Of a stretch of 64,000 nt of DNA, positions 8,326 through 52,713 are shown piece by piece. The notes beneath the pieces are model-generated. The model was not told the DNA's origin. It worked only from the letters and a program-made list of their open reading frames with translations, and searched no databases. The translations under genes and the position numbers were made by a program. How positions within the stretch are numbered: position 1 is the first letter of the stretch; the number at the start of each line of letters is the position of its first letter. This DNA is from Planctomycetota bacterium (GTDB lineage Bacteria > Planctomycetota > UBA8742 > UBA2392), in contig JAHBYA010000002.1 in NCBI GenBank assembly GCA_019636195.1, positions 18,311 to 82,310 of the forward strand, in the 5' to 3' direction.

Positions 8326-8405
8326 GGCGCGGAAACTAGCAAGGCGTGGGGGAGTCGCAAAAGAAAAGGCGCGGCACAAGGCCGCGCCTTTGGACATTGC
8401 GTACT

Positions 8406-9383
8406 TCAGTTGTAGCGCTTGGCCAACTCGGCGGCTTCTTTGCCGGCTGGTGTCTCCGGGTACTTCTTGGCGATTTTTTCAAGTTCCTTGCGGGCATTGG
8501 CGGGCTTCATGTCTTCGAGTTTGGGCCGCAGCTTCTCAAGGTCGGTGGCCGCGCTATTGCAGTCCTTGTATTCCTTGGACTTCTTGAGCTCCTTGGCTTC
8601 CGTGTCCCATGTGCCGCCGATTTCGCTGCCCTTGAACTTGGCCGCGCCTTCTTCAAGCGCCTTGACCTGTGCCACGCGATCGCCCGCCGCGGACGCGCCT
8701 TCAACCTTGTTCTTGGTCAGGTTGACGTGCTTATTCAAAAGGCCCATCAGGTAGTCTGCGTCCGCCTTGACCAGCTCGTCCGTCGCACTCTCGGCAACGA
8801 TCTTAGTCTCATTCAACGACTTGCCGTACTCGCCCTTGTCGAAGGCCTTGACCGCGCCGTTGAGTTCTTTGGCCAATTCCTTGTCCACCTTGGTGGGGGC
8901 CAGGCTGGCAACCCACTCGGTCACTTTCTCGGCGGTGACGCCGCTGGGGTGGCCCTTGTAGATGCACTTTCCGTCGGCATCGAGCACCCAGCTGTGGGGG
9001 ATGCCGCGCGTTTCGTAAAGCTTGCTGATGTCAGCCTTGACTACGCCGAAGGTGGGTTTCTTGGCGTCGATCATCTTGCTCTGGATCAGGGCGGCGTCCT
9101 CACTGCTCACAGCCACGATCTCAAAGCCCTTGTCCCGAAACTTGTCCGTCAGCTCCTGTAGATGGGGAACCCCCGTCATGCAGGGCCCTCACCAGGTTGC
9201 CCAGCGCTCGATCATGACCACTTTGCCGCGGTACTGGTCGAGTTCCGTGAATCCCTGTGGCACGTTCCAGCTCTTGTCGAACTTGAAGTTGGCACCCTGG
9301 TCGCCCACCTCGACACCGGCATGCAGGACTCCCGCACCCAGCGCCAACGACAACAGCAGTGCAAATGCACCCATCCTATACAT
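8406..9383 (-). CDS. TlpA/ResA-like thioredoxin-fold thiol:disulfide oxidoreductase with in-frame TGA at the CxxC position (candidate selenoprotein), plus a Lys/Glu/Ala-rich C-terminal extension
   Basis: Two ORFs (9189..9383 and 8406..9179) are in the same frame, separated only by TGA at 9189..9191. Read through, the protein is signal peptide ...GKVVMIERWATW-[TGA]-GPC-MTGVPHLQELTDKFRDKGFEIVAVSSED...IPHSWVLDADGKCIYKGH, so the TGA replaces the first Cys of the WCGPC-type motif. A GC hairpin (GGGG-GUU-CCCC core with bulged U) starts about 8-17 nt 3' of the UGA. Confidence 0.6.
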
Positions 9384-9395
9384 GACTTCTCCCAG

Positions 9396-10619
9396 TTACC
9401 GAACCATCTTACGAGTAGAGTCTGGCCGCCTTCTATTACGCACAATCAACCCAAAACAGCCGACCAACACGCAAATTGCCCAGAATCGGCCAGGTGCGCC
9501 AATCGTTGAACAGCCGCCTTCGCCTTGAGCTTCCTTCGATTTCGGTTTTGGCGGCTTCGGTCGCAGGCTGATCACATTACTGCTGACCAGCGGCGGCGTG
9601 GCGATGAAAAAGTCCGCGGCGGCACCCAGCGCGCTGAGCACACCAGTGCGGCTGACCGTAACCTCGCACGATGTCTGCGGCCCGCTGCTGTTGAAATTGA
9701 TGCTGATCCAGAACGCGCGTACCTGCCCGGTGGGGATTGCGGGCACCGTGCCCGCGTCAAACGTAACCGTGATGACGCTGCCCGCCACCGACCACGCCGC
9801 AACATCTGACGGCGTGCGGGCCTGGATCAACACTTCGCCGCTGCCGGGCTCAAAGGCGCTGTCTCCGTCGTCCTGCCACAGCGCAAGCCGCGTCACAGCC
9901 GCCGTGTCCAGCGAGCTTGGCAGCGTCACTGACGCACTGATAGTCGCCAGTTGAATACCCGACAGCTGACCGGGCGGCGTCGGGTTCAGGCTTTCGACAA
10001 TGAAGTGAAGTGCTGCCACGTTGGTCGCGCCGAAGCTGACCGTGCGCGGCGAAGTCGGGTTGCCGGTGCCCGGCTGCAACCGGTTCTCGCTGTGGCGGAT
10101 GGTGACTGTATTGGCCTGCACGGGAAACGTGCCCGTTACGCTGTCCGTCAACGGGTCGTCAAGGTCGATGCTGGCGGCTGCGTCAATGCGAAAGCGAAAG
10201 GCCTCGCCGTACGCGGCCGCGTTGGCAGTAACGGTCACCAGCACCTGGACCTCGTGAAACTGGCCCTGCAACGCGGTGAAGGCCTCGGTGAACGTCAGAA
10301 AGTTGTCCGTGCCGTTGGGCGCCTGCGAAGTTGCCAGCTCTTCGGTGGCGTCAAAGATGCCGTTGTGGTCGGCGTCAAAAAACACACGCACGCCTGAAAA
10401 TACAATCGCGGCATTGGCAGCGTTATCAAAGTGCACGGTCAGCGCATTACAAAGCACGTCTCCGCCGCTGGCTTGCGCGACAAATCGGGCCACCTGCATG
10501 TTGGTACTGCCAAGTTGCGTGGCGTACGAGGGCCCGTTTGTGCCAGAGAGGTTTACAGACAGTGACGCGGCGGCCAGCGGGCAGGAAATCAGAAAGGCCA
10601 GAACAATCAGCAGGCGCAT
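9396..10619 (-). CDS. Secreted protein of unknown function with Cys-containing C-terminal sorting signal
   Basis: Start at MRLLIVLAFLISCPLAAAS (signal peptide). C-terminus is ...KPPKPKSKEAQGEGGCSTIGAPGRFWAICVLVGCFGLIVRNRRRP (Gly/Cys motif, TM helix, Arg cluster). Confidence 0.6.
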   Translation of the reverse strand: MRLLIVLAFLISCPLAAASLSVNLSGTNGPSYATQLGSTNMQVARFVAQASGGDVLCNALTVHFDNAANAAIVFSGVRVFFDADHNGIFDATEELATSQAPNGTDNFLTFTEAFTALQGQFHEVQVLVTVTANAAAYGEAFRFRIDAAASIDLDDPLTDSVTGTFPVQANTVTIRHSENRLQPGTGNPTSPRTVSFGATNVAALHFIVESLNPTPPGQLSGIQLATISASVTLPSSLDTAAVTRLALWQDDGDSAFEPGSGEVLIQARTPSDVAAWSVAGSVITVTFDAGTVPAIPTGQVRAFWISINFNSSGPQTSCEVTVSRTGVLSALGAAADFFIATPPLVSSNVISLRPKPPKPKSKEAQGEGGCSTIGAPGRFWAICVLVGCFGLIVRNRRRPDSTRKMVR

Positions 10620-10917
10620 CAGGACTCCAGCGGGGACAAAAACGGGGCGGTTTGGATTGTAGCGGCAAAGGCGCTGGCTGGAACCGGCGGCGAACGACAC
10701 ACGGCGACACCAGAAGAGCCCTCAGGCGGCCAAGGCTTGAATGAAGGGCTTGCCGGGCTTCTGGCCCCAGCCCGGCCCAACTGGACATAACATCGATTAT
10801 CGGACGTAGGGCATCGGGCCGCCGCGACTTCGGCAAGGTAAGCAACCGGCCACGCCTTTCAGCCAGATGATCTCTGCCGTCAAGGTGCCGCGGGTCGATT
10901 GAGGCCCTGCATCGCGT

Positions 10918-11385: not shown

Positions 11386-11883
11386 TTACTTCCATAGAAC
11401 CTTTTGTCCGCGCTTGAGGTCAAACGTGATGCCGCCGGACCACAGCCGCTGCTGAACGTCGTACTCGGCATGGCAGAACTGGCACAGTGCCGCCAGGTTC
11501 TCGTCGGCGCAGTTGGCTGGGTCGTGGTCAAGGTGCGCGGTTTGAAGGATCACCACAGCTGGCCGCAACTGCGGAATCTTCCCGCCGTGCCGGATCACGT
11601 ACTTCCACCAGTAGTCGCGGGGCCACGGCAGCGGGCCGGGCAGGCGCTTGCCGTTGCGGTCGCGCCACTGCCCGTCCTCGCCGGCCCAGCAGTTTTCGGC
11701 GCCGACGGTGACCTTTGCGCCGTGCGGCTTGGCGCAGAACTCGCACACGCCGCCCGCACGCATGAAGCGGATACGGTCGCTGATCAATGACCAGTTACCG
11801 GGATACTTGCGCTTTTGCGCCCTGCGGCGACGTTCAACAATGTCCATGAGTCCCCCACGCCAGTTTAGATTCGTGAGCGACAC
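11386..11883 (-). CDS. HNH endonuclease family protein
   Basis: CEFC ... HLDHDPANCADENLAALCQFCH gives the H-N-H/zinc-finger arrangement. The start may be the internal MDIVERRRRAQ. Confidence 0.6.
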   Translation of the reverse strand: MSLTNLNWRGGLMDIVERRRRAQKRKYPGNWSLISDRIRFMRAGGVCEFCAKPHGAKVTVGAENCWAGEDGQWRDRNGKRLPGPLPWPRDYWWKYVIRHGGKIPQLRPAVVILQTAHLDHDPANCADENLAALCQFCHAEYDVQQRLWSGGITFDLKRGQKVLWK

Positions 11884-12803: not shown

Positions 12804-15800
12804 TCAGTCGCGCCGCTTGCGCAGCCATGCCAGCAGGCCGAGCACCGCCAGGCTCCAGGCTGCGCCGCCGGTCAGCGTGCAACCGCCGCCGCCACCGCTC
12901 TTTTTCTTGCCGCCGCTGGACTTCTTGGGCAACGCGCCGGTCTCATTCACGTGCACGACTACGCGGTCCGTTGCACTGAGGCCGTAGCGGTCAATCACTG
13001 TAAGCTCAAACACTAGCCGGTCGTCCACGGCCGGTGCCGTAAACGTGGGCGTTGCGGTCGTGTCCCCCACCAAGACCACCGGATTTGTACCCCCCACCTG
13101 TGCCCACAGGTAAGTCAGAGCGTCGCCGGTGTTCGGGTCGCTGCTGGCTGTGCCGTCAAGCGTGACCATCGCGCTCCAGACTGCCCCTTGGTCGGGCCCG
13201 GCGTTGGCGACCGGCGGCCGATTGGCCTCAATCGTGACGCGGACAGTATCGGTCGTGAAGTCGCCGCGGTCATCCGTGACGGTAAGCTCGAACTCAAGTT
13301 GCTCGTCCGAAGTGACAGGCAGGGTGCTGAAGCCGGCAAGCATCGTGCCCGCGCCAGCCAGCGTAACCGGCGTGCCTGAGGTTTGCACCCATGAGTAAGT
13401 CAGCGGGTCTGACTCGGCGTCGGTGCTGGCGCTGCCGTCAAGCTGCACCGGGTCGCCGCCCAGCACACCGAAGTCTGCACCCGCGTTGGCGACAGGCGAA
13501 GCATTGTTGCGGACTGTTACCGTAACGCTATCGGTCGTAAACGCGCCTGCGCAATCGCGCACGGTCAGCTGCATGACCACCGGTTCATCCTGGGTGACCC
13601 ACGGCGCCGTGAAGCTGGGGTTGGCAATCGTGGTCGAGTTCAAAGCCAGCGTGACGTTGCCGCTCAGCTGGCTCCACTCGTAGCTGATCGGATCACCATC
13701 GGCATCGCTGCCACTGCCGGAAAGCTGACCGGGAGCGTTTTCGCGAACGTCGAAGTCCGCGCCCGCGTTGCTGCTGGGCGCGTTGTTGGTGCGCACGTCA
13801 AACTCAATTGCCAGGTACTGCAATTCGCCGGTGTTGCTTGCCACGGTGTCCCGGATGCGCACTGTCCATGTCCCGTTCACTGGCAGGCAGTACAGCGCGG
13901 TCATCGGGTCGTCTTCCTGCTTGGTGTCGGGAAACACGGCAATCAGGCTGTACTCGGTATTGAACACGCCATTGTTGGTGGACTTCAATGTTACGGTTGG
14001 TCCCCCACCGGGCGCCTGCAACGTAACAGACAGGTCGCCGCGACGCTGGTGCTTGATGCGGGTGAACACACGCACGCCCGTTATCACGCGCGGGTCGCTG
14101 ACGTTGAAGGTGCGCGTCAAGCCCGCTGTGCTGTTGTCCGGGATCGCCACGGGCGTGCTGCCGTTGACCGCGTCGCCCCGGAAGATCTTTTCCAGGTTGA
14201 CCTGATGGCTGCTGGCGACGACCCAGCCGGTTTCGTCGTTGGGTACGCCGGTTTGCGGGTTGGCCGGCACGCTGGTGCCCTTTACGCGCAAAATCCAGGT
14301 TCCGGTGATCGGATTGTCCACATGCACCAGCTCAAGGTTGTCGCGCTGGTTGGGGCCGTTGTTCGTGAACGCGTAGGTATGGTCGTTGGTGCTCGCGGTG
14401 TTCACGCCGCGCCACGGGTAGTGGATGCCGCCGTTCGGGTCTTCAAGTTCAATGTCGAGGTCATTGACCATGGACACCGCCGCCCCGCTGGTGGCATGCA
14501 CGTCAAGCCACGAGAGCACGATGTGAATCGGGTCAGCGCTTGAGACCGTGAATGTGTACTCCTGCACTTTCCCCGAGCGTGTGGTGCCCCGGAAAATGCG
14601 GCGCCCGCCGGAAGCCTTGTCTGCCAGGATCAGGTCAGAGGCCGCCTGCACGTCCACAATACCGAAGCCGTAGCGATAGTCCGGGCCGGGGTGGTACTTG
14701 TCGCGACAGGTCTGGGCCAGCACCGCGCGCGCGACATCCGGCGAAAACACCTGATCGCTGTGTTCGCGCCGCCACAGTTGCGCCAGCAGCACCACGCTGC
14801 CGCACACCGAAGGCCCGCTCATGCTCGTGCCGCTGGCGGAGTAGTAATTTGTGTTCGAACTGCTGCCGGTGCTGTCCAATGAAACTCCGTTGGCACAAAA
14901 CTGCGGGATCAGCCTGCCGTCCAGTCCCGGGCCGCGGCTGGAAAAGTCGGCGATGTCTTCGTTGTCCTCCGCGGCCGCGATGATGAAACCGTTGCGGTGT
15001 GCATTGGCCGACGGGATCGAGCAGGTGGGGTTGCTGTCGCCAAACGGCTTGGTGCCGGACGGCGAGTAATTCGCATAGTTGCCAGCCGACTGCACCATGC
15101 AACCAAGGATGTCGCGGTTTGTGCGGTCCTTGGTGCGCGTGTCACCGTTGTACGCAGCCCAGGTGGGACTGCTGAAGCTGGCATAGCTGTGATTGTCGGC
15201 AACGTGGTTGAAGTTGTGCTTGGCATCGCGCCGGCGAGCATCAACGCCATTCCACTCATGTACAAGGCAAAGCGCGCGGTACGCATAGCCGCGGGCTGAG
15301 GCGTTGTTGGTGCCGTCGCCGACAATCGTGCCGGTCACGTGGGCGGCATGGCTGTGCAGTGTGCTGTCCATGTTGTGCACGCGGCCGCTGCCCGGCCAGT
15401 TGCTTGGCACGCTTACGCCGGACAGCCCTTGGTACTGCTCATGGGTGCTGCGTGCGACACCGGCGTCAAAGACCGCAGCAACCTGGCCGTTGCCGTCAAG
15501 GTTGTACGGGTTTACGCCGATGATCGCGGGCGTGGCGTTGGCCATGGCCGCGCTGACCTGGTTTGTGGTCTCGGTGTGGCTGCGCGGCGATACGTACTCA
15601 ACCAGCGGACTGGCCAGCAGGCGCTTGAGGCCTTGACCCGTCAAGGAAAGGGTCACGGTCGCGTCGGTGCCGCCCAACTTGCCGTCAACCACAATGGCGC
15701 CCACGTCGTCCAGCAGCACTGCGGCTTGTTCAATGCTCACGTCCGCCCAGAACTCAACGGCATACTCACCGGCCTGATCCTGTTTGGCATAGACGTCCGG

Positions 15801-16259
15801 CGCCATCCGGTCCATCGGCTCAATTGCAAGCGTGCCTTCGACCAGCGTGTCTTTCAGGACTTCCGCGATGCTGTGGTCGCCGACACGAAGAAAGTGAGTG
15901 TGGGGCCACGCGTAGCCGATGAACGACACGCCGCGTGCATCAAGGCGCCGCGCCAGCGCCCGCGTCATGTCACCGCGAAGCTTCAGGGCAAACACTTCCC
16001 CAGTCGGCGGCACGGGGCACTTGCGGTCAGCAAGCACATAGCGCGAGCGCAACATCACGAGCCCGCGAACTTCAACTTCGTTCAGGCCGGCCTCAAAGCG
16101 CGCCTGGGCCTCCAGGTCGTAGGGCTGACCCAGTTCAAGGCTTGATGTCGGTCGCGGGGGCGCCGCCTGCTGGCCGGCGGCCTGATCCACCCGCAAAAGC
16201 GAAAGCACTGCCGCGAACAGCGGCAGCGCACACAACAACATCGCGTTGCGATAACGCAT
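12804..16259 (-). CDS. Secreted subtilisin-like serine protease (S8) with proprotein-convertase P-domain, 4 PKD-like repeats and Gly-rich Cys-containing C-terminal sorting signal
   Basis: Signal peptide MRYRNAMLLCALPLFAAVLS. Catalytic D (AVFDAGV), H (HAAHVTGT) and S (GTSMSGP), plus the P-domain hallmark RRGDLSVTL. Repeats have the form PVANAGADF/DQ...LDGSAS.D.DGD.L.Y.W, ending ...GGGGGCTLTGGAAWSLAVLGLLAWLRKRRD. Confidence 0.85.
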   Translation of the reverse strand: MRYRNAMLLCALPLFAAVLSLLRVDQAAGQQAAPPRPTSSLELGQPYDLEAQARFEAGLNEVEVRGLVMLRSRYVLADRKCPVPPTGEVFALKLRGDMTRALARRLDARGVSFIGYAWPHTHFLRVGDHSIAEVLKDTLVEGTLAIEPMDRMAPDVYAKQDQAGEYAVEFWADVSIEQAAVLLDDVGAIVVDGKLGGTDATVTLSLTGQGLKRLLASPLVEYVSPRSHTETTNQVSAAMANATPAIIGVNPYNLDGNGQVAAVFDAGVARSTHEQYQGLSGVSVPSNWPGSGRVHNMDSTLHSHAAHVTGTIVGDGTNNASARGYAYRALCLVHEWNGVDARRRDAKHNFNHVADNHSYASFSSPTWAAYNGDTRTKDRTNRDILGCMVQSAGNYANYSPSGTKPFGDSNPTCSIPSANAHRNGFIIAAAEDNEDIADFSSRGPGLDGRLIPQFCANGVSLDSTGSSSNTNYYSASGTSMSGPSVCGSVVLLAQLWRREHSDQVFSPDVARAVLAQTCRDKYHPGPDYRYGFGIVDVQAASDLILADKASGGRRIFRGTTRSGKVQEYTFTVSSADPIHIVLSWLDVHATSGAAVSMVNDLDIELEDPNGGIHYPWRGVNTASTNDHTYAFTNNGPNQRDNLELVHVDNPITGTWILRVKGTSVPANPQTGVPNDETGWVVASSHQVNLEKIFRGDAVNGSTPVAIPDNSTAGLTRTFNVSDPRVITGVRVFTRIKHQRRGDLSVTLQAPGGGPTVTLKSTNNGVFNTEYSLIAVFPDTKQEDDPMTALYCLPVNGTWTVRIRDTVASNTGELQYLAIEFDVRTNNAPSSNAGADFDVRENAPGQLSGSGSDADGDPISYEWSQLSGNVTLALNSTTIANPSFTAPWVTQDEPVVMQLTVRDCAGAFTTDSVTVTVRNNASPVANAGADFGVLGGDPVQLDGSASTDAESDPLTYSWVQTSGTPVTLAGAGTMLAGFSTLPVTSDEQLEFELTVTDDRGDFTTDTVRVTIEANRPPVANAGPDQGAVWSAMVTLDGTASSDPNTGDALTYLWAQVGGTNPVVLVGDTTATPTFTAPAVDDRLVFELTVIDRYGLSATDRVVVHVNETGALPKKSSGGKKKSGGGGGCTLTGGAAWSLAVLGLLAWLRKRRD

Positions 16260-16323
16260 GCGTTCCCCAGTTTGCAATTCAAAAGCTACCCGACGGGGCG
16301 CCGCTTGCGCAGCGCCCCGGAAT

Positions 16324-19300
16324 TCATGCCTGACCCCGGCGAGCTACCGCCCGGCTGCAAACCCACGCGCCTGCGGCAAGCGCGATCAGCAACCACAGCA
16401 GGCCCTTGCCGCCATCGGTGCTGCAACCGCCGCCCCCGCCGCCACCCTTGCTGCCGCCGCCGCCTCCCCCACCACCTCCGCCGCCACTGCCGACGAAGAT
16501 TGTGACGGTATCGAAGCTGATGTCATCGCCGTCATCCAGCATCAGCTGGAACACAAGCACATCGTTGACCGACGGGGCCGTGAAGCTCGGGAACTGGGAT
16601 GCTTCGTTTTGGAGCGTAACGACGTTCGCGCCGCCGATCTGCGACCACTGGTAGGTCAACGGGTCGCCATCCGGGTCGCTGCTGGCGCTGCCATCCAACG
16701 TAACCACCGCGCCGGTAGTTACTGTCTGGTCGGGCCCGGCATTGGCCACCGGGGGCGTGTTGGTCGAAACCGGGTTGACCGTGACCACCACGTCGTCCGT
16801 ATCCGATGCGCTGAACGGGTCCGTCACTGTCAGGCGCATCGTGATCAGCGTGGTTGAAAACACCGTCGGCGCCGTGAACGATGGCGTAGCCGTGTTGGCG
16901 CCGCTCAGGAACATGAACGATGACCCGATTTCTGCCCACGAGTATGTCAGCGGATCGCCATTGGGATCAGAACTGCCGGTGCCATTGAGGTTCCCCGGCT
17001 GGCCGGACGTGATCGAAAAGTTTGCCCCGGCGTTGGCTACAGGCGGCTGGTTTGGCGCCGGCACGTCATTGACGGTGATGTTGACGGTGTCAGACGAAAT
17101 GCCGCCGCGCCCGTCGTTGACCACCAGCTGAAACACGCAGATTTGCGTGCTGCCCACGCCCGGCGCCGTGAAGCTCGGCGTCGCGGTCGTCGGGTTGTTG
17201 AGTGTCGCGCTCGGGCCGGAGGTCTGGCTCCATGAGTACGTCAGCGGGTCGCCATCCGGGTCAAAGCTGCCGGTGCCATTGAGGTTCACGAGCGTGCCCT
17301 CATTGACCGACTGGTTCGGGCCAGCCTCGGCGACCGGCGGGTTGTTTGCGCCGCCGGTAACCGTCAGGTCAATCTCGAGCCCCAGCCACTGCAGCGTGCC
17401 CGAGTTGCTGCCGGTCTGGTTGTCGGTGATGATCACTTGCCACGCGCCGCCGGCGGGCTTGCCGATGAAGGCCGTGACGTCGCTGGCGTACTGGCGCGTG
17501 TCGGGATACACCGCCAGCAGGTCGCGGCGGGTGCTGGTACCAAAGTCGTTCAGTGTGACCGTGGTGTTGTCCGGGTGGCGCAGCTGCACTTGCAGGTCCC
17601 CGCGGCGGGTGTGTTTGATGTCCGTGATCAGGCGCACCTGCGCGACGTTGCCGCTGGCAGACACGTTCAGTGTCCGAGTCAAGTTGCCGCTGCCGTTGGG
17701 TATCGCCGCCGGGCTGCCCGTGTTCACGGCGTCTTCTGCCGACACCTTGCTGTGGATGATCTGGTGGTTCAGGCTCGTGACAACAAAACCCGCAACATTG
17801 TTCGGGTTGCCGTTGACATTCGGCGGCAGCAGGGACCCATGCACCTGCACCGTCCAGGTACCGACCGCGGGGCTGCTGATATCTACCAGCTCAAGGTTAT
17901 CGCGCTGGTTGCAGTGCGAGCGACTGAACGCGCTTGTGTTGACGACTCGTGTCCACTGGTGAGTCTGGTTGCCGGTTGCAGTCAGCCCCACCCACGCGTA
18001 GTGGCGCGTGCCTGTGGGCGAGATCAGGACCAGGTCAAGGTCATTGATCAACTTGGTACCTGAGCCGGTGCTGGCGTAAATGTCCAGCCATGACAGCGCA
18101 ACCTTGATCGGGTTGGTGCTGCTGGTAACCGACATCTGCCACTGCACAATGTTGCCTTGGCGCACCTGGCCGCGCACGATGTGACGGCCGCCGCTGCTCT
18201 TGTTCGCCAGCATCAGGTCCGCGGCGTTGCGCACGCGGATACGCCCGAAGCCGTACTGGTAGTCAGGCCCCTGGTTGCCGCTGTCCAGCGCGGTTGCGGC
18301 AAGCACGCCACGCAGCACATCGGGTGACAGGCGCTGCTTGCTGTACTCGCGCTGCCACAACTGGGCCAGCAGCGTGATACCGCCGCAGGCGCTGGGGCTG
18401 GACATGCTGGTGCCGCTGCTGCTGGCGTAGGCGCTGTTGCTGCCGGTGTAAGTGCTGGTAAGGCCCGAGCCATTGGCCTGAAAGTGCGGAATGATGCGCC
18501 CGTCGTTGGTCGGACCGCGCGAACTGAAACTTGAAATGCTGCCGTTGTCGTTCAAAGACCCGATCACGAATGCATTTTTCATGCACGTGTCGTTCGTACA
18601 GGTGTTGCTGCCGCTGCCGCTGTTGCCCGCCGACTTGCACATGTTCACCAGCACGTCGCGAATGTCGATGTCGCTGGACTGCGCGCTGCTGTTGTAGCCG
18701 CCGTTGCTGGTGCTTTCGCCATAGCTGTGGTTGTCTGCCACAATGCGATAGTTATGCACAGCCGTCAGGCGCTGGCTGTTCATGTTGTTCCAGTCGTGGC
18801 TGACGACATAGGCCCGGGGCGCGTAGCCGCGGCCGTTGGCGTTGGCGGTGCCGTCGCCGATGATGGTGCCGGTTACGTGCGTCGGGTGGCTGGACATGCT
18901 GCTGGTGTCCACGCGCAGCACACGCTTTGTGCCGTTGTTGATGGGGCTGGGTGAACTGGCGGCCTGCAATGCAACGTGCGTGTCCAGCGCCGTGCCGCCG
19001 TCCCATACACCCACCACCAACCCGTCGCCTGTCAGGTTGTAGCTGGTGGACGGGCCAACGTCGGAGGCGCCGGCAATGCTGAGCGATGCGCTGACAACAT
19101 TATGGATCACCTTGTGCGGCACCGGCTCAATCCACTCGATGCGCGGGTCGCGGCTTGCAGCCTTCAACTGCGAGGTGGTGAAGCGCACGCCGAAGAAGCG
19201 CACTTCTTCGGGATCGGGCGTGCCGTCGTTCAGCGTTGAACCGAACAGCAGGGGCACTTCACGCTCGTGCAACCAGGCCAGGATTTCCTCGCCGGTAACG

Positions 19301-19866
19301 TTGCGCCAGAACGTGATGCGCAGGTCGTGCGTCGCATCGGTAGGGGCAGACATCAACTCCCATGCTTCCTTGCTGCACACGTCCATCGCATGGCTGAGCA
19401 ATGTGCCCGCCACGTTGGGATGACCCTTCAGCATTTGGCCTGCGGTGTTGAGGCTTTGCCCGTCGTGGGCGCGGAAAAAGTAGGCATTGGGCCCGGCATA
19501 GCCGACAAATGCGATACCTGCGGCCTCAAGTTGCGCCGCAAACTCTGCGTCAAGAACCTCACGGAACTTGACGTAGAACATGGATGTCGGTTCGGACGTC
19601 GGCAGCGGGCAGTCGGGGTCTGCTAGCGCGAATCGGGATTCAAGCTCAATCAATCTCGCCCGCTCGTCGAAGGTAAGCTGCTGTTCAAATCGTTGGTGGG
19701 CCTCGCGGTCAAACGCTTGACCAAGGTCCAGGCTGGTGGCCGGTCGTGTCCCCACGACATTGCCGGCCTCTGGTGCGGCCTTGCCGTTGCCGGGAGTCAC
19801 CGCAAGTACCGCTGCGGCAACGACCAATGCAATTGCAAGACACGCCCATGCGGATGGGAACCGCAT
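16324..19866 (-). CDS. Secreted subtilisin-like serine protease (S8) + P-domain + PKD-like repeats + poly-Gly + C-terminal sorting signal (paralog of the 12804..16259 gene)
   Basis: Same architecture as its neighbour, with a homologous ~250-aa N-terminal region, catalytic triad motifs and RRGDLQVQL. The tail is poly-Gly (GGGGGGGGGGGGSKGGGGGGGCSTDGG) then LLWLLIALAAGAWVCSRAVARRGQA. Confidence 0.85.
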   Translation of the reverse strand: MRFPSAWACLAIALVVAAAVLAVTPGNGKAAPEAGNVVGTRPATSLDLGQAFDREAHQRFEQQLTFDERARLIELESRFALADPDCPLPTSEPTSMFYVKFREVLDAEFAAQLEAAGIAFVGYAGPNAYFFRAHDGQSLNTAGQMLKGHPNVAGTLLSHAMDVCSKEAWELMSAPTDATHDLRITFWRNVTGEEILAWLHEREVPLLFGSTLNDGTPDPEEVRFFGVRFTTSQLKAASRDPRIEWIEPVPHKVIHNVVSASLSIAGASDVGPSTSYNLTGDGLVVGVWDGGTALDTHVALQAASSPSPINNGTKRVLRVDTSSMSSHPTHVTGTIIGDGTANANGRGYAPRAYVVSHDWNNMNSQRLTAVHNYRIVADNHSYGESTSNGGYNSSAQSSDIDIRDVLVNMCKSAGNSGSGSNTCTNDTCMKNAFVIGSLNDNGSISSFSSRGPTNDGRIIPHFQANGSGLTSTYTGSNSAYASSSGTSMSSPSACGGITLLAQLWQREYSKQRLSPDVLRGVLAATALDSGNQGPDYQYGFGRIRVRNAADLMLANKSSGGRHIVRGQVRQGNIVQWQMSVTSSTNPIKVALSWLDIYASTGSGTKLINDLDLVLISPTGTRHYAWVGLTATGNQTHQWTRVVNTSAFSRSHCNQRDNLELVDISSPAVGTWTVQVHGSLLPPNVNGNPNNVAGFVVTSLNHQIIHSKVSAEDAVNTGSPAAIPNGSGNLTRTLNVSASGNVAQVRLITDIKHTRRGDLQVQLRHPDNTTVTLNDFGTSTRRDLLAVYPDTRQYASDVTAFIGKPAGGAWQVIITDNQTGSNSGTLQWLGLEIDLTVTGGANNPPVAEAGPNQSVNEGTLVNLNGTGSFDPDGDPLTYSWSQTSGPSATLNNPTTATPSFTAPGVGSTQICVFQLVVNDGRGGISSDTVNITVNDVPAPNQPPVANAGANFSITSGQPGNLNGTGSSDPNGDPLTYSWAEIGSSFMFLSGANTATPSFTAPTVFSTTLITMRLTVTDPFSASDTDDVVVTVNPVSTNTPPVANAGPDQTVTTGAVVTLDGSASSDPDGDPLTYQWSQIGGANVVTLQNEASQFPSFTAPSVNDVLVFQLMLDDGDDISFDTVTIFVGSGGGGGGGGGGGSKGGGGGGGCSTDGGKGLLWLLIALAAGAWVCSRAVARRGQA

Positions 19867-20154
19867 CGGTGCCTCCTTCTGCGTCCGAAATGCCAAAGAA
19901 CAAAGTTGTTTGCTTACAGGAGAGTTGCCCAGACCCCACCTGACTTACGCTAACGAACAGACAATTAAAAAGTTCACTTCGAATCTTCGAATCTTATCAC
20001 ATTGTAACCACCTTCGTGCACCCGGTTTGCGACACCAGACACACGCACTCGACGGCTTGGCGTGTTCGCGCTACCTTGCAACTGGACCTGTTTTGCATGG
20101 GTGGCCACAACCACCCAGCCGTGTTATGCAGTGAAGCAACGACAAGGACGCCCA

Positions 20155-35323: not shown

Positions 35324-36091
35324 CTAGTCGCCGCCCAGTTTCCAGCCCTTGGGAATCTTGACCTTCACGTCAAAGTGCCGCTTCAGGACCGCTACGGCCG
35401 TCTCAAGCACTGTGACGCGCGCGTGCCACTTGTGCTGGCTTGAGACCGCGTGCCAAGGCGCGTAGTCGGTAGATGTGCGCTTGAACATTTCGTCCACGGC
35501 GGCTTCGTACATGTCCCATTTCTCGCGGTTGCGCCAGTCTTCGGGGCCGATCTTCCATGCCTTGAAAGGGTCCTGCTCGCGGGCCTTGAAACGCTTGAGC
35601 TGCTCGTCCTTGGAAATGTGCAGGTAGTACTTGATCACCGGCACGCCGTCATCGTGCAGCATGCGCTCAAAGGCATTGATCTCGTCGTAGGCACGCTTCC
35701 AGGCTTCCTTGGCAGCGAACTTCTCCACGCGCTCGACCAGCACGCGCCCGTACCAGCTTCGGTCAAAAATGCCCATGCAGCCGGGCTCGGGGATGCGGTC
35801 CCAGAAGCGTTGCAGGTAGTGCCGCCCCTTTTCGCGGGCGCCGGGCGCGCCAATCGGGTGCACCACGTAGCCTCGTGGGTCAAGCCGCTCAATCAGCCGC
35901 CGAATGGACCCGCCCTTGCCTGCCGCATCGCAGCCCTCGAACACGAAAATGGCTTCGCGGTTGTTCTCGTGCATCCAGCGCTGGATGAACAGCATCTGCA
36001 TCTGCGCCAGTTCCTGGCGGCTGTGGTATTCATCCTTGTCCTTGATGCGCGCGGACAGGTCTATCGACTCAACGGTCAAGGCCATGTTCAC
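35324..36091 (-). CDS. ppk2: Polyphosphate kinase 2 family (polyphosphate:nucleotide phosphotransferase)
   Basis: FEGCDAAGKGGSIRRL (Walker A) and FDRSWYGRVLVERVE (PPK2 lid motif). Confidence 0.85.
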   Translation of the reverse strand: MNMALTVESIDLSARIKDKDEYHSRQELAQMQMLFIQRWMHENNREAIFVFEGCDAAGKGGSIRRLIERLDPRGYVVHPIGAPGAREKGRHYLQRFWDRIPEPGCMGIFDRSWYGRVLVERVEKFAAKEAWKRAYDEINAFERMLHDDGVPVIKYYLHISKDEQLKRFKAREQDPFKAWKIGPEDWRNREKWDMYEAAVDEMFKRTSTDYAPWHAVSSQHKWHARVTVLETAVAVLKRHFDVKVKIPKGWKLGGD

Positions 36092-46965: not shown

Positions 46966-47406
46966 ATGAAATCCACCTTCGCTACCGAGATGTTTGTCAA
47001 GCTGTTTGGCGCCATGCCAAGACCGCGTGAGCCACAACACAGGCCGGAGCCGCCAACCTCGGCCATCATGGTGCCGGACCGACCGGCGCCCAGCGGCGGC
47101 AAAGTCATTTACCACGTCGTCCCGCGCCGCAAGGACGACGGCTGGAACGTGAAGAAAGAGGGCGCCAGCAAGCCCTCAAGCGTCTGCGACACCAAAGATC
47201 AGGCAATTGAGGCCGCGCGCGGGTTTGCACAGAACCTTCCGTGGTCCCAAGTTGTCATTCACAACAAGGACGGCAAAATCGCCCAGGAGTTCAGCTACGG
47301 CACGCCGCCGGAAGGCCACACCGACAAGCCCGCCAAGCCGGTCGGGGACTGGTCCCGCGACCCCGAAGACGAAACCGAGGCCGATCCCGGCATCCAGGAC
47401 TCATGA
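46966..47406 (+). CDS. DUF2188 family protein
   Basis: Start at MKSTF, with WNVKKEGASKPSSVCDTKDQAIEAARGFAQN...VIHNKDGKIAQEFSYG typical of DUF2188. A TACAAT box lies 6 nt upstream of the ATG. Confidence 0.55.
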   Translation: MKSTFATEMFVKLFGAMPRPREPQHRPEPPTSAIMVPDRPAPSGGKVIYHVVPRRKDDGWNVKKEGASKPSSVCDTKDQAIEAARGFAQNLPWSQVVIHNKDGKIAQEFSYGTPPEGHTDKPAKPVGDWSRDPEDETEADPGIQDS

Positions 47407-48939
47407 CCCCCGCGTGCTGTGAGCGACGAACTGAAACTCTCGGCCCAGCGTCTGCGATAGCAGGCGGGCATTGTGCGCCGCGCCGTCAAGTTCAAAGGCC
47501 GCGTTCTTCCTGGCGCGCACAACCACCCGCACCGTGTTCTTCAATACAGTGCAGCGAAGGTCGGTAACAACGCCGCTGCGGCCGCGGTCAAGCCCGGCCG
47601 CAACGCGCAGCATGCCGGCCATCACTTTGACGGTGTGCTGCACATCCGGCTCAAGCGCGGCATAGGTGCGGTGGCGCCGTTTTGGCGCGCCGCTAAGGCT
47701 GTAGCGTGCAGCCAAGGCCATCGCTTCAATCTCAACGTCCGTGGCGCCGCGCAGCCCGCCGCCGCGGATCAGCTGGTACGCGATGTGTTTGCGGTCGATG
47801 TAGCTGATGCCGTGCCCGACATCGACAAGCAACGCTGCGACCTCCAGTAGGCACCCCACCCTGGCGGGCAGTCTGTGTACCCTGCGCGCGCAGTTGAACA
47901 GCTTCGTCGCGAGCACCGACATGCGCGTGGCCCGCTCCTTGTCTGCGCCTGTGCTGTCGAGCAGTTCAAACGCGCTTGCACGCAGGATGTCGTGGGGCGG
48001 CTGCTTGGTGCGGTAGTACCGGGCCATTTCGCGAAGCAGCAGGCCCTCGCGCAGGGCGGCTTCACACAACAGGATCCGTTCCGCCCGCACGATGCCGAGC
48101 ACCGCAGTCAGTACCGCCGCGCCCAAATGAATCGTATCCACGCGCTTGGCGTCAACGCCGGCCACGTTGGCGCGCTCAACGGCCGTTGCCGTGAGCAGTT
48201 CACCGGCCAACTCGTTCAGTTCATTCGCGCCGACTTCACAGCCGGTGAGGTTGCCCCACGTCTCCTGACCGCGCAATCGAATGCACGCACGGCCAAGCGC
48301 CAGTTGCGTGCCGGATGTCGCAACAACAACATCCACGCCGCGACGTCGGATGTCCTTGAGCAGCGGTTCTGCGCGTGTGCGCACCAGCCGCCACAGCTTG
48401 TTACGGCTTCGACGCGTGAGCGGGTCGTCCGCGCCGATTTCGTCGCGCAGGCGACGCACGCCCAGTGGCAGGCTTTTGCCGACGATCAACCGTCTGGCCT
48501 CCCCGTACATGACTTCCAGGCTTCCACCACCAAGGTCCAGCACTAGGCCGCGGCGGCCCTCAAGGTCTACCGAGTGGCGAACTCCAAGAAAGATCAGCTC
48601 GGCTTCTTCGCGGCCGTCTATCAGTTCGGGAGACAGGCCGGTGCGGCGCTTTACCTCGCGCAGGAACTGGGCGCCGTTTTCGGCTTCGCGTACCGCGCTG
48701 GTCGCCACTGCCGCGATTCTCTGGACCCGCAGGCGTTTGCACATGTCCGCGAAACGCTCCAGCGCTTCCAGAGCCGCTTTCATGTTGGCGGCGCGCAGAC
48801 GGCCATTGCGGAAGACGCCCTCGCCCAGTTTCACTCGTTCAAGCTCGCGGTCCACCATGCGAAAGCTGTGCGGGCCCCGCGCGTCGGCGATGACCATGTG
48901 GACGGAGTTTGAACCAATGTCGATGGCGGCTATTCTCAC
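47401..48939 (-). CDS. ppx: Exopolyphosphatase / guanosine pentaphosphate phosphohydrolase (Ppx/GppA)
   Basis: MRIAAIDIGSNSVHMVIA with a Ppx/GppA ASKHA fold. Its start overlaps the ppk1 stop. Confidence 0.85.
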   Translation of the reverse strand: MRIAAIDIGSNSVHMVIADARGPHSFRMVDRELERVKLGEGVFRNGRLRAANMKAALEALERFADMCKRLRVQRIAAVATSAVREAENGAQFLREVKRRTGLSPELIDGREEAELIFLGVRHSVDLEGRRGLVLDLGGGSLEVMYGEARRLIVGKSLPLGVRRLRDEIGADDPLTRRSRNKLWRLVRTRAEPLLKDIRRRGVDVVVATSGTQLALGRACIRLRGQETWGNLTGCEVGANELNELAGELLTATAVERANVAGVDAKRVDTIHLGAAVLTAVLGIVRAERILLCEAALREGLLLREMARYYRTKQPPHDILRASAFELLDSTGADKERATRMSVLATKLFNCARRVHRLPARVGCLLEVAALLVDVGHGISYIDRKHIAYQLIRGGGLRGATDVEIEAMALAARYSLSGAPKRRHRTYAALEPDVQHTVKVMAGMLRVAAGLDRGRSGVVTDLRCTVLKNTVRVVVRARKNAAFELDGAAHNARLLSQTLGREFQFVAHSTRGS

Positions 48940-51146
48940 GCGGCAGGCCCCACCTGGTTGTATCGCGCGATCAGGACTTCCTGGGCCGCGCGGCGCGGCT
49001 CACTGCCCGGCCCGCGGCGGTACCACTTGCCGTCGGGCTTCAACTCCCAGGCCTGGCAATTGTCGGCCAACGGCAGATCCAGACATTCCTCTACGACGCG
49101 CGCCTTAAGCGCAGGGTCCAGGATCGGGAAGCAAGACTCCACGCGGCGGTGCAGGTTTCGCTGCATCCAGTCTGCGCTGGAAGCATAAGTATGCTCGCCC
49201 GAAGGCCCAAAGCTGTACACGCGGCTGTGTTCAAGCCAACGCCCGACAATCGAGATCACACGGATGTTCTCACTAACCCCGGGCACGCCGGGCCGCAGGC
49301 AGCACACGCCGCGCACGACCAGGTCGATTGGCACCCCCGCTTGGCTGGCGGCATACAAGGCCTGAATCACGCCCGGGTCAGCCAGCGCGTTCATCTTGGC
49401 GCGGATGCGGCTGGGCTTGCCCAGCCGGGCGAGTTCAGCCTGCTCATGAATGCGCTCAATGACCATGGTGTTGAGCGTGAACGGCGAATAGTGCAGGTGC
49501 TTCATGGTCGGCGCCTCGCCTGGCGCCATCAGCTCACGAAACAGTCGGTGCACGTCAGTGCAGATTTCTTCGTTCGTGGTCAGCAGGCCAATATCAGTAT
49601 AGAAGCGGGCAGTCGTGGTGTGATAGTTGCCCGTGCCCAGGTGTACATAGCGGCGCAAACCGCCTTCTTCGCGGCGCAGCACCAGCATCATTTTGGCGTG
49701 CGTTTTGTAGCCGACCACGCCGTACATCACCTGCACGCCCGCGCTTTGCAGATGCTGGGCCAGGTTGATGTTTGCGGCTTCGTCAAAACGCGCGCGCAGT
49801 TCAATCACAGCCGTGACTTCCTTGCCCGCGCGCGCGGCATTGAACAGCGCGTCGGTAATCTGGCTGCGGTCGCCGGTGCGGTACAGCGTGACCATGACGG
49901 CCACTACCGCAGGGTCAACGGAAGCGCGCTGGATGAAGTCCAGCACCGGACTGAACGACTGATAGGGATGATGCAGCAGTACGTCGCCCTTACGCAGTGT
50001 TTCGTAAAGCTCGTCAGCCTTGCCAATCCGCGGCGGCAGGCTGGGCGTGTGCGGCGGATACTTGAGTTCGGGCAGGTCCGCCAGGTTGTACAGCAGCACC
50101 AGCCGGTTCAGGTTGACCGGCCCGTTGACGCGATACAGGTCGTCGGGCGTGAGATTGAAGTGATCTAGCAACCGCGAAGCAACTTCAGGCGGGCAATTGT
50201 CGGCGACTTCAAGGCGTACCGCGTCGCCATAATTACGATGCGGCAACTCGTAGCGCAGCGCCTCAGCGAGGTCTTCGACTTCTTCTTCGTCCAGCCACAG
50301 GTCGCTGTTGCGTGTAACGCGGAACTGCCAGCAACCCTTCACTTCCATGCTGGGAAACAGCGTGCCGATGTTGGCGTGTATGGCCGCCGACAGCAGCACA
50401 AAGTCCTGCGCGCCGCCGGAAACGGCCGGCGGCAGCTTCAACACCCGGGGCAGCAGCCGCGGCGTCTGGACAATCGCCACGCCGATGTTGCGCGAGAACG
50501 CGTCCTTGCCCTCAAGCTGCACAAAGAAGTTAAGGATGCGATTGAGCACGTTTGGAAAGGGGTGCGCGGGGTCCAGGCCCACGGGCGTCAGCAGCGGCTG
50601 CACCTCGCGATTGAACCAGTCGCCGACCCAGTCATTCACCGCCTGCGACCACTCGGTCCTGCGCAGGATTCGCACACCTTTGTCGGCAAGCGCCGGCAGC
50701 AGCAGGTCGTTGAACACGCGGTACTGCTCGGTCACCAGTTCGCGGGCCTTTTCATGAATCAGGTGCACCAGGTCTTCAGGCCGGACATCCTCCGGCCCCA
50801 GCGACTGCACGCCGGCCGCCGCCTGCTCTTTGATGTTGGCGACACGGATCTCGAAGAACTCGTCGAGATTGCTCGACGAGATAGTCAGAAAGCGCAGCCG
50901 CTCAAGCAGCGGCACGCTTTCGTCGGCGGCCTGCTCAAGCACGCGACGATTGAAGTCGAGCAGCGACAGTTCGCGATTGATGAACAGCTTCCGGTCTGGC
51001 GCTTCCGCGCGGCTGGACGCGGAGGCGGCGTCCAAGGCATCCCCCGCGCCGGTTTTACGCCCGGACTGTGAAGATCGCGTCAACGACGGACGCCCCGCGG
51101 CGTTCTCGCGCTGCCAGTCAGATTTGCGTCGTTTGCGTTGCGCCAT
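48936..51146 (-). CDS. ppk: Polyphosphate kinase 1
   Basis: Start taken at MAQRKRRK (the ORF continues to 51284). PPK1 N-domain (RFLTISSSNLDEFFEIRV) and PLD-like C-domains, about 736 aa. Confidence 0.9.
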   Translation of the reverse strand: MAQRKRRKSDWQRENAAGRPSLTRSSQSGRKTGAGDALDAASASSRAEAPDRKLFINRELSLLDFNRRVLEQAADESVPLLERLRFLTISSSNLDEFFEIRVANIKEQAAAGVQSLGPEDVRPEDLVHLIHEKARELVTEQYRVFNDLLLPALADKGVRILRRTEWSQAVNDWVGDWFNREVQPLLTPVGLDPAHPFPNVLNRILNFFVQLEGKDAFSRNIGVAIVQTPRLLPRVLKLPPAVSGGAQDFVLLSAAIHANIGTLFPSMEVKGCWQFRVTRNSDLWLDEEEVEDLAEALRYELPHRNYGDAVRLEVADNCPPEVASRLLDHFNLTPDDLYRVNGPVNLNRLVLLYNLADLPELKYPPHTPSLPPRIGKADELYETLRKGDVLLHHPYQSFSPVLDFIQRASVDPAVVAVMVTLYRTGDRSQITDALFNAARAGKEVTAVIELRARFDEAANINLAQHLQSAGVQVMYGVVGYKTHAKMMLVLRREEGGLRRYVHLGTGNYHTTTARFYTDIGLLTTNEEICTDVHRLFRELMAPGEAPTMKHLHYSPFTLNTMVIERIHEQAELARLGKPSRIRAKMNALADPGVIQALYAASQAGVPIDLVVRGVCCLRPGVPGVSENIRVISIVGRWLEHSRVYSFGPSGEHTYASSADWMQRNLHRRVESCFPILDPALKARVVEECLDLPLADNCQAWELKPDGKWYRRGPGSEPRRAAQEVLIARYNQVGPAA

Positions 51147-51180
51147 GCTGGGCACTAATTGCGGTCTGCCGCCGATTTCG

Positions 51181-52713
51181 TCAAGGCTGTCCGTAACCCC
51201 CGCCACCGGGGGTCTGAATCTCGATTGCGTCGCCGGCCGCAAGGGTACCGCTGCACTTGGGTGACAGTGCCTCGACGCTGCCATCTTTGCGGATCACGCG
51301 GTCAAGGCCCGGGGCGCCCGCCGTTCCGCCCTGTGCCCCTGCAGGCCCGCGCCTGCGTCGTTCTGCCAGCAGCGCGAACTGCGCGCGTGTCAATGCTCGC
51401 ACACGCCTGATCACCCCCTCGCCACCGGGGTGTCTCCCTGCGCCGGAGCTGCCATCGCGCAGTGCATACTCATCCACGCGCAGGGGATAGGCGTGCTCCA
51501 GCGCCTCAACCGGCGTATTGAGCGTGTTGGTCATGTGGCTGTGGGTTGCGCTTGCGCCACCCCGCGCAGGGCCGCCGCCGTAACCGCCGGCGATTGTCTC
51601 ATAGTATGTGAACCCGCCGCCGCCGATTGTCAGGTTGTTCATAGTGCCCTGCGCGTTGGCAGGCACCTTCCCCGGCACCGCCTGCGCCAGTGCAGTCAGG
51701 CAGATATCTACAATGCGCTGGCTGGTCTCGACATTGCCGCCGGCGACCGGTGCCGGGCGCTTTGCATTGACAACAGTGCCCTGCGGCGCGATGACTTCAA
51801 TGCACTCAAAGCAGCCCGCGTTGATGGGCGGCCGCGGGTCAGCGATGCACAATGCGGCGTAGTACGCTGCGCTTTGAGTGACAGCCCGGACCGCGTTGAC
51901 GCCGCCACGCACTTGTGGTGCGCTGCCCGTGAAATCGAAAGTCAATCGGTCGCGTGCGACAGTCAACGTGACACGAACGGGTATGTCCGTCGTGCCCGCG
52001 CCGTCGTCATCCAGAAAGTCATCGGCTTCATACACCCCGGGTTTGAGACGCATAAGGCTTGCCTGGATCAGAAGCCGGCTGTGCCGCTGCAAAGCCGCGC
52101 ACAGCTTGTCGTACGACTTGCCGTGACGGCGGCGAATCTCCGCCAGCCGGGCGCCTGCGCGGTCGCAGGCGGCCACTTGCGCGCCAAGGTCGCCGTCGCG
52201 TTCAAGGGGTGTGCGCGTATTGGCCAGTATCAACCTCCAGGCCTGTGTGCGGGCGCCCTTTGCCGTGCGCAGCAGTGTCGGCGGAATCACTAGGCCCTCC
52301 GCGATCAGGTCGTTTTGCGGCGCCATGCTGCCGGGTGCCGCGCCGCCGATGTCTGCGTGATGGGCGCGGTTAGCGGCGTAGCCGATCAGCTTGCCGTCAA
52401 AGATCGGGACGACCACAGTCAGGTCGGGCAAGTGCGTGCCGCCTTCATAGGGGTCGTTCACGACAGCGACTTCGCCTTGGCCCAGCGACATTGACGCTAT
52501 CACGGCTTGCACGCTGGCGGGCATGCTGCCCAGGTGGACCGGCAAGTGCGCCGCCTGTGCCAGCAGGCGGCCCTTGGCATCGAACAGCGCGCACGAATAG
52601 TCCTGCCGTTCCTTGATATTCGGGCTGAATGCCGCGCGCTTCAGGGCCTCGCCCATTTCCTCGGCGGCGCCGACGAGCGCGTGGTGCAGCACGCTGATTT
52701 CGGCTGCGTTCAT
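51181..52713 (-). CDS. Hydantoinase B / oxoprolinase family protein
   Basis: Start at MNAAEISVLHHAL, HyuB-like throughout. Overlaps the hyuA-like stop by 4 nt. Confidence 0.8.
   Translation of the reverse strand: MNAAEISVLHHALVGAAEEMGEALKRAAFSPNIKERQDYSCALFDAKGRLLAQAAHLPVHLGSMPASVQAVIASMSLGQGEVAVVNDPYEGGTHLPDLTVVVPIFDGKLIGYAANRAHHADIGGAAPGSMAPQNDLIAEGLVIPPTLLRTAKGARTQAWRLILANTRTPLERDGDLGAQVAACDRAGARLAEIRRRHGKSYDKLCAALQRHSRLLIQASLMRLKPGVYEADDFLDDDGAGTTDIPVRVTLTVARDRLTFDFTGSAPQVRGGVNAVRAVTQSAAYYAALCIADPRPPINAGCFECIEVIAPQGTVVNAKRPAPVAGGNVETSQRIVDICLTALAQAVPGKVPANAQGTMNNLTIGGGGFTYYETIAGGYGGGPARGGASATHSHMTNTLNTPVEALEHAYPLRVDEYALRDGSSGAGRHPGGEGVIRRVRALTRAQFALLAERRRRGPAGAQGGTAGAPGLDRVIRKDGSVEALSPKCSGTLAAGDAIEIQTPGGGGYGQP

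Follow-up and report, generated by a model that had tools for sequence, protein, structure and literature searches.

A conserved in-frame UGA at the active site of a secreted TlpA/ResA-type oxidoreductase points to a selenoprotein family in uncultured Planctomycetota

Does an in-frame TGA that falls on the first active-site position of a thioredoxin-like gene end that gene, or does it encode selenocysteine (Sec)? This question is raised by a locus on contig JAHBYA010000002.1 of a Planctomycetota metagenome-assembled genome (MAG; GCA_019636195.1), which we analysed within a window of 64,000 nucleotides (positions 18,311 to 82,310 of the forward strand; coordinates below are those of the window). 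On the minus strand, 8406..9383 forms a single frame of 325 codons that is broken only by a TGA at 9189..9191 and that reads W-A-T-W-U-G-P-C when this TGA is taken as Sec (U). An ATG at 9383 starts a frame of 64 codons (MYRMGAFALLLSLALGAGVLHAGVEVGDQGANFKFDKSWNVPQGFTELDQYRGKVVMIERWATW) that ends in ...GKVVMIERWATW before the TGA (9191..9189), after which the same frame runs on as GPCMTGVPHLQ... (GPCMTGVPHLQELTDKF...) for a further 260 codons, up to a real TGA stop at 8408..8406; across the site the read-through sequence is ...IERWATW-U-GPCMTGVPHLQELTDK. Inspection of the sequence revealed no other stop and no frameshift within this frame. The coordinates, the common frame of the two halves and the motif that had been given in a preliminary description of the locus all proved correct, and the reading proposed there, that of a selenoprotein, is supported by the existence of Sec and Cys forms, by the conservation of the TGA, by equal constraint on both sides of it, by the use of TGA as a genuine stop in the same DNA and by the fit of the downstream hairpin to the bacterial selenocysteine insertion sequence (bSECIS) consensus. 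We therefore consider it highly probable that 8406..9383 encodes one secreted oxidoreductase of 325 residues, of the TlpA/ResA/DsbE type, in which the attacking Cys is replaced by Sec.

The relatives of this protein in public databases are of two kinds. A homologue search covered 5.8 billion proteins, and its best 120 matches were listed. Among the matches listed, six clusters of close relatives are full length (321-326 aa), and about 56 clusters, at 99% to 42% identity, had been called as proteins of about 255 aa that begin just past the CxxC motif and cover the same 79% of the query. Calls that start just past a CxxC motif are the usual database signature of a selenoprotein. The full-length homologues of all six clusters read ERWATWCGPCM. 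In an alignment with these Cys-containing orthologues, a check that had been proposed for the locus, the TGA falls on the first Cys of CxxC. At the DNA level, the Cys-form homologues carry TGT or TGC at the codon aligned to the UGA, and Cys codons are the only alternatives to TGA that were found at this site.

The codon itself was followed in orthologue DNA taken from the Planctomycetota MAGs of 11 GTDB species representatives and from 6 metagenome contigs. The sequences orthologous to the window gene, called family A here, comprise 15 distinct sequences (the window and loci L002-L012, L018, L020 and L022), which stem from independent assemblies and sequencing projects and include 12 GTDB species representatives. 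Their identity ranges from 71% to 26%, and this exact codon is an in-frame TGA in all 15, including the most distant (L012, 26% identity) and one in which the motif has become U-T-P-C (L022). The real stops of 12 family-A genes are divided between TGA (3), TAA (3) and TAG (6). Thus, true stops interchange at this evolutionary depth, and the internal TGA never does, so that its placement is far beyond chance, as had been argued from the window sequence. Moreover, a hydrophobic, signal-peptide-like N-terminus and an N-terminal domain are conserved upstream of the TGA in all loci, and the ratio of non-synonymous to synonymous differences (pN/pS) has the same value, 0.39, in the 45 codons upstream of the UGA as in the 36 codons downstream of it.

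Family A is not the only gene with a TGA at such a position. In 8 loci, the window locus not being one of them, the family-A gene is closely followed in tandem by a TlpA-like paralogue, family B, which also carries an in-frame TGA at its CxxC motif (...LEIWKIH-U-EPC...). Family-A Sec genes stand alone in the window and in L002-L004 and L006, together with family-B Sec genes in L007-L011 and L021, and together with a Cys copy in L005; in L024 and L025 it is a Cys copy that accompanies the family-B Sec gene. The Cys-form copies are in tandem with a Sec-form copy in all three loci whose context could be examined (L005, L024 and L025), and may represent selenium-independent back-ups. In a rough neighbour-joining tree (no bootstrap support), the Cys forms fall into two clades inside the Sec forms, and all deeper branches have Sec. 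The topology suggests Sec as the ancestral state and the Cys copies as derived, possibly with two independent origins. An unrelated, third selenoprotein candidate was noticed in L012, a locus of a distant Planctomycetota MAG (around position 1464, minus strand): it is an AhpC/Prx-like lipoprotein with a weak match to a SelL-related family, and it reads ...VVLFFRGHW-TGA-PYCRRQL... (GHW-U-PYC).

In the window, TGA is otherwise an ordinary stop. It ends about 21 of the 53 predicted window genes, among them ispF, ppk1 and dusB, whose matches to profile hidden Markov models reach the natural C-terminus. Among the other window genes, none has coding sequence on both sides of a TGA, the candidates being shadow frames or adjacent genes. 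A global reassignment of UGA is ruled out, as TGA ends ispF, ppk1 and dusB naturally and also ends the gene studied here.

The Pfam families Redoxin, AhpC-TSA, Thioredoxin_8 and Thioredoxin all match residues 26-147, and thus run across the UGA; the best of them is Redoxin (PF08534). DsbE (3gl3), ResA (1st9 and 2f9s), TlpA (1jfu) and CycY (1kng) are the best matches in sequence and structure, and the thioredoxin (Trx) fold is present with the N-terminal and central insertions of the TlpA/ResA/DsbE-like family (cd02966). The structure was considered in an AlphaFold2 model of P0003, a Cys homologue 63% identical to the read-through protein (mean predicted local distance difference test score, pLDDT, 90.9). 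In this model the active-site motif lies between a strand (51-57) and a helix (63-67), the signal peptide region has a low pLDDT, as expected for a signal peptide, and residues 169-317 form eight helices with a pLDDT above 88. The helical C-terminal extension of the preliminary description is thereby borne out. This domain has no Pfam match, and no solved counterpart of it was found among the top fold matches, which matched the Trx domain alone.

With the TlpA/ResA/CcmG(DsbE) reductases of cd02966 the window protein shares a Trx fold, a W-C-x-x-C-type site and a cis-Pro loop, in which Pro129 would be the residue in cis conformation, as in the family; its conserved signal-peptide-like N-terminus suggests an extracytoplasmic location as well. 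It differs from these reductases in that it has a UGA (Sec) where they have the first active-site Cys, adds a helical C-terminal domain of about 160 residues and has a putative cleavable signal peptide instead of a membrane anchor; moreover, cytochrome-c-maturation or Sco genes are not found nearby. Against the ResA subfamily of NCBIfam (NF002854) it scores 85.2 bits, below the cut-off of 170. Two selenoprotein models of NCBIfam were compared as well. The ResA-like WAxxUGC selenoprotein (NF041054) is similarly TlpA/ResA-like, of similar length (354 aa) and has the same W-A-x-x-U-G start of the motif, but the window protein reaches only 41.9 bits against a cut-off of 300 and has the classical UxxC motif, U-G-P-C, not U-G-C. 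The 'VPGUxxT family thioredoxin-like (seleno)protein, type 1' (NF041382) shares the two-domain architecture and a homologous helical C-terminal domain (residues 150-322 against 172-348 of the 349 profile positions, E=5e-18, 65.5 bits), but its cut-off is 350, the C-terminal domain alone matches, and the window motif is WATWUGPC, not VPGUxxT. Indeed, no NCBIfam model reached its cut-off for the window protein or its paralogues, which is consistent with the names "hypothetical protein" and "redoxin domain-containing protein" that NCBI gives to the truncated open reading frame (ORF). That UxxC proteins of Trx fold are an established selenoprotein class, as the preliminary description held, is confirmed by published catalogues: "Thiol:disulfide interchange protein", "Prx-like thiol:disulfide oxidoreductase" and thioredoxin are among the selenoproteins of Zhang et al. 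2006 (PMC1794560), and UxxC TlpA-like and Redoxin selenoproteins have already been catalogued (PMC1794560, PMC13188914). The catalogued UxxC Redoxin selenoproteins, set alongside by description, belong to the same domain family and likewise have a UxxC motif, Sec/Cys pairs and a bSECIS element.

If the UGA is recoded, a SECIS should lie just behind it, and an imperfect hairpin is found there. In its stem, GGGG (+15..+18 after the UGA) is paired to CCCC (+22..+25), and the loop between them is GUU (+19..+21). The pairs G12-C28 and A13-U27 and the 7 pairs of a lower stem (nt 5-11 with 34-41, U of UGA = 1) extend the hairpin, whose minimum free energy (MFE) is -16.2 to -16.8 kcal/mol. The stem and the loop are those of the preliminary description; the single bulged U reported there is really a 1x1 internal loop, and two small internal loops are present. 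According to the bSECIS consensus, an apical loop of 3-9 nt tops an upper stem of 4-16 bp, a G falls within the first two loop positions and is usually followed by G or U, the loop lies 16-37 nt from the UGA and the MFE is at most -7.5 kcal/mol (PMC13188914). The window agrees with all four criteria (18-nt spacing, GUU loop, 4-bp upper stem, -16.2 kcal/mol). As a positive control for the geometry we used the actual Escherichia coli fdhF sequence, in which the hairpin was recovered at nt 3-42, with the loop GGUC, an 18-nt spacing and a 4-bp upper stem. The two elements thus have in common a hairpin of about 38 nt right after the UGA, the spacing, the length of the upper stem and a loop that starts with G-(G/U)-U; they differ in that their sequences are unrelated, the loop is GUU in the window and GGUC in fdhF, and the window has the 1x1 internal loop where the fdhF SECIS has a bulged U.

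The same criteria are passed by 18/21 Sec sites (11/14 of family A and 7/7 of family B) and by the Prx-like site of L012 (GCGCC-AGUUG-GGCGC at +12..+26), and by none of the 7 Cys-form sites. The hairpins are not copies of each other. The family-A gene of L012 has a 7-bp hairpin in the same place with a different sequence (GUGCCCA-GGU-UGGGCAC), and the family-B hairpin, unlike that of family A, lies at +25..+39 with 6 bp (CACCUC-GUU-GAGGUG), a GUU or GUA triloop and a compensatory change from C-G to G-C between lineages. In family A, the loop GU forms the first two bases of a Val codon (GUN). Among the matches listed, the residue at this place is Val in 47/47 Sec-type clusters starting at CxxC and Ile (AUH) in 6/6 full-length Cys-type clusters, and the Cys-form copies have lost the hairpin as well. 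Such a switch is the pattern expected if GU is needed only where a UGA must be recoded. Moreover, 75.7% of the family-alignment cells pair in the structure derived from the window, against 46-54% in slid controls, and the covariation score was reached by 6 of 500 shuffles.

Several results weigh against the selenoprotein interpretation, and they concern the hairpin and the machinery that would decode it. The bSECIS criteria are also passed at 26% of random in-frame positions and at 10/21 of the true-stop TGAs of the GC-rich window; they are therefore only moderately specific in this DNA, but Sec and Cys sites still differ clearly. Rfam gave no match at the gathering score and none at E<=10 on 9100..9260. 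Compared with dinucleotide shuffles, the local fold has no extra stability (z=0.28), and when synonymous codons are randomised, z for the window is only -1.39 and 7.8% of the randomised sequences are equally stable; the mean z in the latter test was -0.94 for family A, -1.74 for family B and -0.11 for the Cys forms. Conservation at synonymous sites is not raised after the UGA. The RNAalifold consensus of family A is weak (-0.98 kcal/mol), because the register of the hairpin shifts between lineages, and in the subgroup L010, L011 and L020 no convincing hairpin was found. By themselves, the RNA-structure statistics are moderate. As for the machinery, an NCBIfam scan of about 47 window genes revealed no selA, selB or selD, ARAGORN gave no tRNAs, hence no tRNA-Sec, in the window or in 12 related loci, and tblastn with E. 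coli SelA, SelB and SelD found nothing in the window and about 0.5 Mb of related loci, the latter being a weak negative. These negatives say little, as the 64-kb window and the loci are a small share of a genome of several Mb. Indirect support for Sec decoding comes from the three gene families (A, B and the Prx-like lipoprotein of L012), each with a TGA at the first Cys of CxxC and a SECIS-type hairpin. It also comes from relatives in the Planctomycetes: Gemmata obscuriglobus, Isosphaera pallida and two strains associated with Porphyra are reported to have full sets of selA, selB and selD (PMC4807772).

It is on these results that the best surviving alternative is built, in which the UGA is read through without Sec, a near-cognate or suppressor tRNA inserting Trp, Cys, Gly or Arg, possibly with help from the hairpin. 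The absence of machinery genes from the window and the related loci, the moderate hairpin statistics and the one subgroup without a clear SECIS would all agree with it. We nevertheless regard it as improbable, since it leaves unexplained why a TGA sits at the catalytic Cys in three gene families with no drift to TGG, TGC or TGT. It must also contend with TGA being an efficient ordinary stop for about 40% of the genes here, with a hairpin geometry and a G-U loop that match a SelB-type SECIS, with a Val/Ile switch that follows the UGA and with the complete Sec machinery of other Planctomycetes.

The locus might otherwise yield two products, a secreted peptide of 64 residues that ends at the UGA and a protein of 257 residues that starts from an ATG 9 nt downstream. 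Gene callers and public records read the locus in exactly this way, and every member has an ATG or GTG after the CxxC. However, the downstream product would be devoid of the signal peptide, of strand beta-1 and of the two active-site residues of a Trx fold whose continuity across the UGA is shown by Pfam and structure matches. Moreover, the two parts are always in frame and always split by TGA, never by TAA, TAG or a frameshift, and are under equal constraint; the Met after CxxC is kept in the uninterrupted Cys forms (CGPCM), and is therefore a family residue and not a start signal. This explanation seems to us even less credible than read-through without Sec. As for a pseudogene, or an assembly or sequencing error by which TGC or TGT was misread as TGA, a single base separates these codons and the source is a MAG, but the same TGA recurs in the 15 distinct sequences from independent projects and is implied in about 56 protein clusters among the matches listed, purifying selection acts on both halves and the rough tree has Sec in all deep branches of the family, so that the chance of such an artefact is negligible.

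Under the selenoprotein interpretation, the UGA at 9189..9191 would be recoded by SelB carrying Sec-tRNA(Sec), recruited by the hairpin just past the UGA, whose G-U-U apical loop 18 nt downstream follows the layout of the fdhF SECIS. The protein would then be exported, presumably to the periplasm, and its signal peptide cleaved. There, the selenolate at the N-terminus of helix alpha-1 might attack substrate disulfides (or sulfenates), and Cys68 would resolve the selenenyl-sulfide. Its most likely role is that of a thiol:disulfide reductase of the periplasm, or of a related redox enzyme, that uses a selenolate as nucleophile. The eight-helix C-terminal domain probably binds a partner or a substrate, and a candidate partner is the secreted protein of 434 aa that is always encoded next to it.

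Coordinates of the features of the locus and of the related copies are collected in Table 1.

Table 1. Features of the proposed selenoprotein gene in the window and positions of family-B and Cys-form copies in related loci.
Feature	Sequence	Positions	Strand	Basis or remark
Complete coding sequence of the proposed selenoprotein	window	8406..9383	-	64 + Sec + 260 codons, TGA stop 8406..8408; Pfam matches span the UGA
Shine-Dalgarno-like GGGAGAAG, 2 nt upstream of ATG	window	9386..9393	-	sequence read; putative role
Signal peptide, aa 1-22 (MYRMGAFALLLSLALGAGVLHA / GVEVGD)	window	9318..9383	-	sequence read; predicted cleavage site
TlpA/ResA/DsbE-like thioredoxin-fold domain, aa 26-147	window	8943..9308	-	
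In-frame UGA, proposed Sec codon, residue 65 (U of UGPC)	window	9189..9191	-	aligns to Cys TGT/TGC; TGA in 15/15 family A
Resolving Cys68 (TGC) of U-G-P-C	window	9180..9182	-	
Candidate SECIS, imperfect hairpin nt 5-41 (U of UGA = 1)	window	9151..9187	-	MFE, bSECIS criteria, fdhF-like geometry
SECIS upper stem GGGG/CCCC with apical loop G-U-U	window	9164..9174, loop 9168..9170	-	GU = part of Val71 codon
Pro129 (G-I-P-H), presumed cis-Pro loop of Trx fold	window	8997..8999	-	invariant column, 40-sequence alignment
C-terminal all-helical domain, aa ~165-325, Lys/Glu/Ala-rich	window	8409..8891	-	AlphaFold2 model of P0003; NF041382 similarity
Strong terminator-like hairpin, 11 bp (8 G-C), then T-run, 14 nt past stop	window	8365..8391	-	
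Upstream partner gene (candidate), 434-aa secreted protein	window	9396..10700	-	conserved position; 12-nt gap to Trx gene
Family-B gene	L024	5874-6842		
Family-B gene	L025	5400-6383		
Family-B gene	L007	~11222		
Family-B gene	L008	~11266		
Family-B gene	L009	~11197		
Family-B gene	L010	~11236		
Family-B gene	L011	~10162		
Family-B gene	L021	~2484		
Cys-form copy (TGT/TGC)	L005	~11308		
Cys-form copy (TGT/TGC)	L024	4799-5764		
Cys-form copy (TGT/TGC)	L025	4328-5305		

The surroundings of the gene are conserved. In all related loci, the gene that directly precedes the Trx gene(s) encodes a homologue of the 434-aa protein, at 40-58% identity, and a DUF480 gene follows the Trx gene(s) in every one of them. 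In the window, the upstream gene ends with a TAA (9398..9396), 12 nt short of the ATG of the Trx gene, the distance that had been noted at the outset, and the two genes are probably co-transcribed across this gap. The 434-aa protein has no Pfam or NCBIfam match. Its C-terminus (...GEGGCSTIGAPGRFWAICVLVGCFGLIVRNRRRP...) consists of a Gly-Cys, a transmembrane helix and an Arg cluster, a tail that in our judgement resembles MYXO-CTERM-type sorting signals.

Other features of the window were noted in passing. Its first 10,807 bases are identical to a second Planctomycetota MAG (GCA_026184255.1, contig JAHCJM010000001.1). Past 10807/10808, this record (L001 1-8372) carries at least 8.4 kb with Rep_1 (PF01446), helix-turn-helix proteins and small ORFs, a stretch that has no match in the 64-kb window; the window goes on past 10808 with an HNH-like ORF and dapA, like its relatives. 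The divergence looks like a polymorphic insertion of a mobile element or like a mis-joined record. Near this breakpoint, an ORF of 165 aa (11386-11883, minus strand) contains Cys/His clusters (...CEFCAKPHG...HLDHDPANCADENLAALCQFCH...) that by eye suggest an HNH-type nuclease, and no Pfam or NCBIfam match was obtained for it at the thresholds used. Further away, two tandem genes (12804-16277 and 16324-19896, minus strand) code for products of about 1,150-1,190 aa, both of which combine a subtilase S8 domain with a proprotein-convertase P-domain and with PKD/K319L-like repeats. A PPK2-family polyphosphate kinase/phosphotransferase is encoded at 35324-36091, adjacent genes for exopolyphosphatase and PPK1 at 47401-48939 and 48936-51284, and a PrkA / DUF444 / SpoVR-type set is present elsewhere in the window and its flanks.

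A broader view of the family can be offered, which we hold only tentatively and think rather less likely than not to be right in full. The combination of a UxxC TlpA-like domain with an eight-helix domain might be an uncatalogued two-domain family confined to a clade of uncultured Planctomycetota, with Sec as its ancestral state and with repeated tandem arrays, either of two Sec genes (A and B) or of a Sec and a Cys gene. The Cys copies could then serve as back-ups that are independent of selenium, and the 434-aa protein could be a dedicated substrate or partner of the enzyme.

To conclude, our results amount to an annotation correction within a known selenoprotein class and leave the current understanding of selenoproteins unchanged; as UxxC TlpA-like and Redoxin selenoproteins had been catalogued before, this is not a new kind of selenoprotein. 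The correction concerns about 56 public protein clusters among the matches listed, which are truncated at the UGA and have thereby lost the signal peptide and the active site. Truncated records from NCBI MAGs bear the names "hypothetical protein", "redoxin domain-containing protein" or "TlpA family protein disulfide reductase". The Sec and Cys copies that lie side by side provide a natural comparison: the hairpin and the Val codon behind the loop GU are both gone from the Cys copies, which shows the constraint that a SECIS within a coding sequence places on the protein. For the organisms, the findings indicate that an uncultured clade of Planctomycetota, represented by at least 11 GTDB species representatives, decodes Sec and uses it in the cell envelope.

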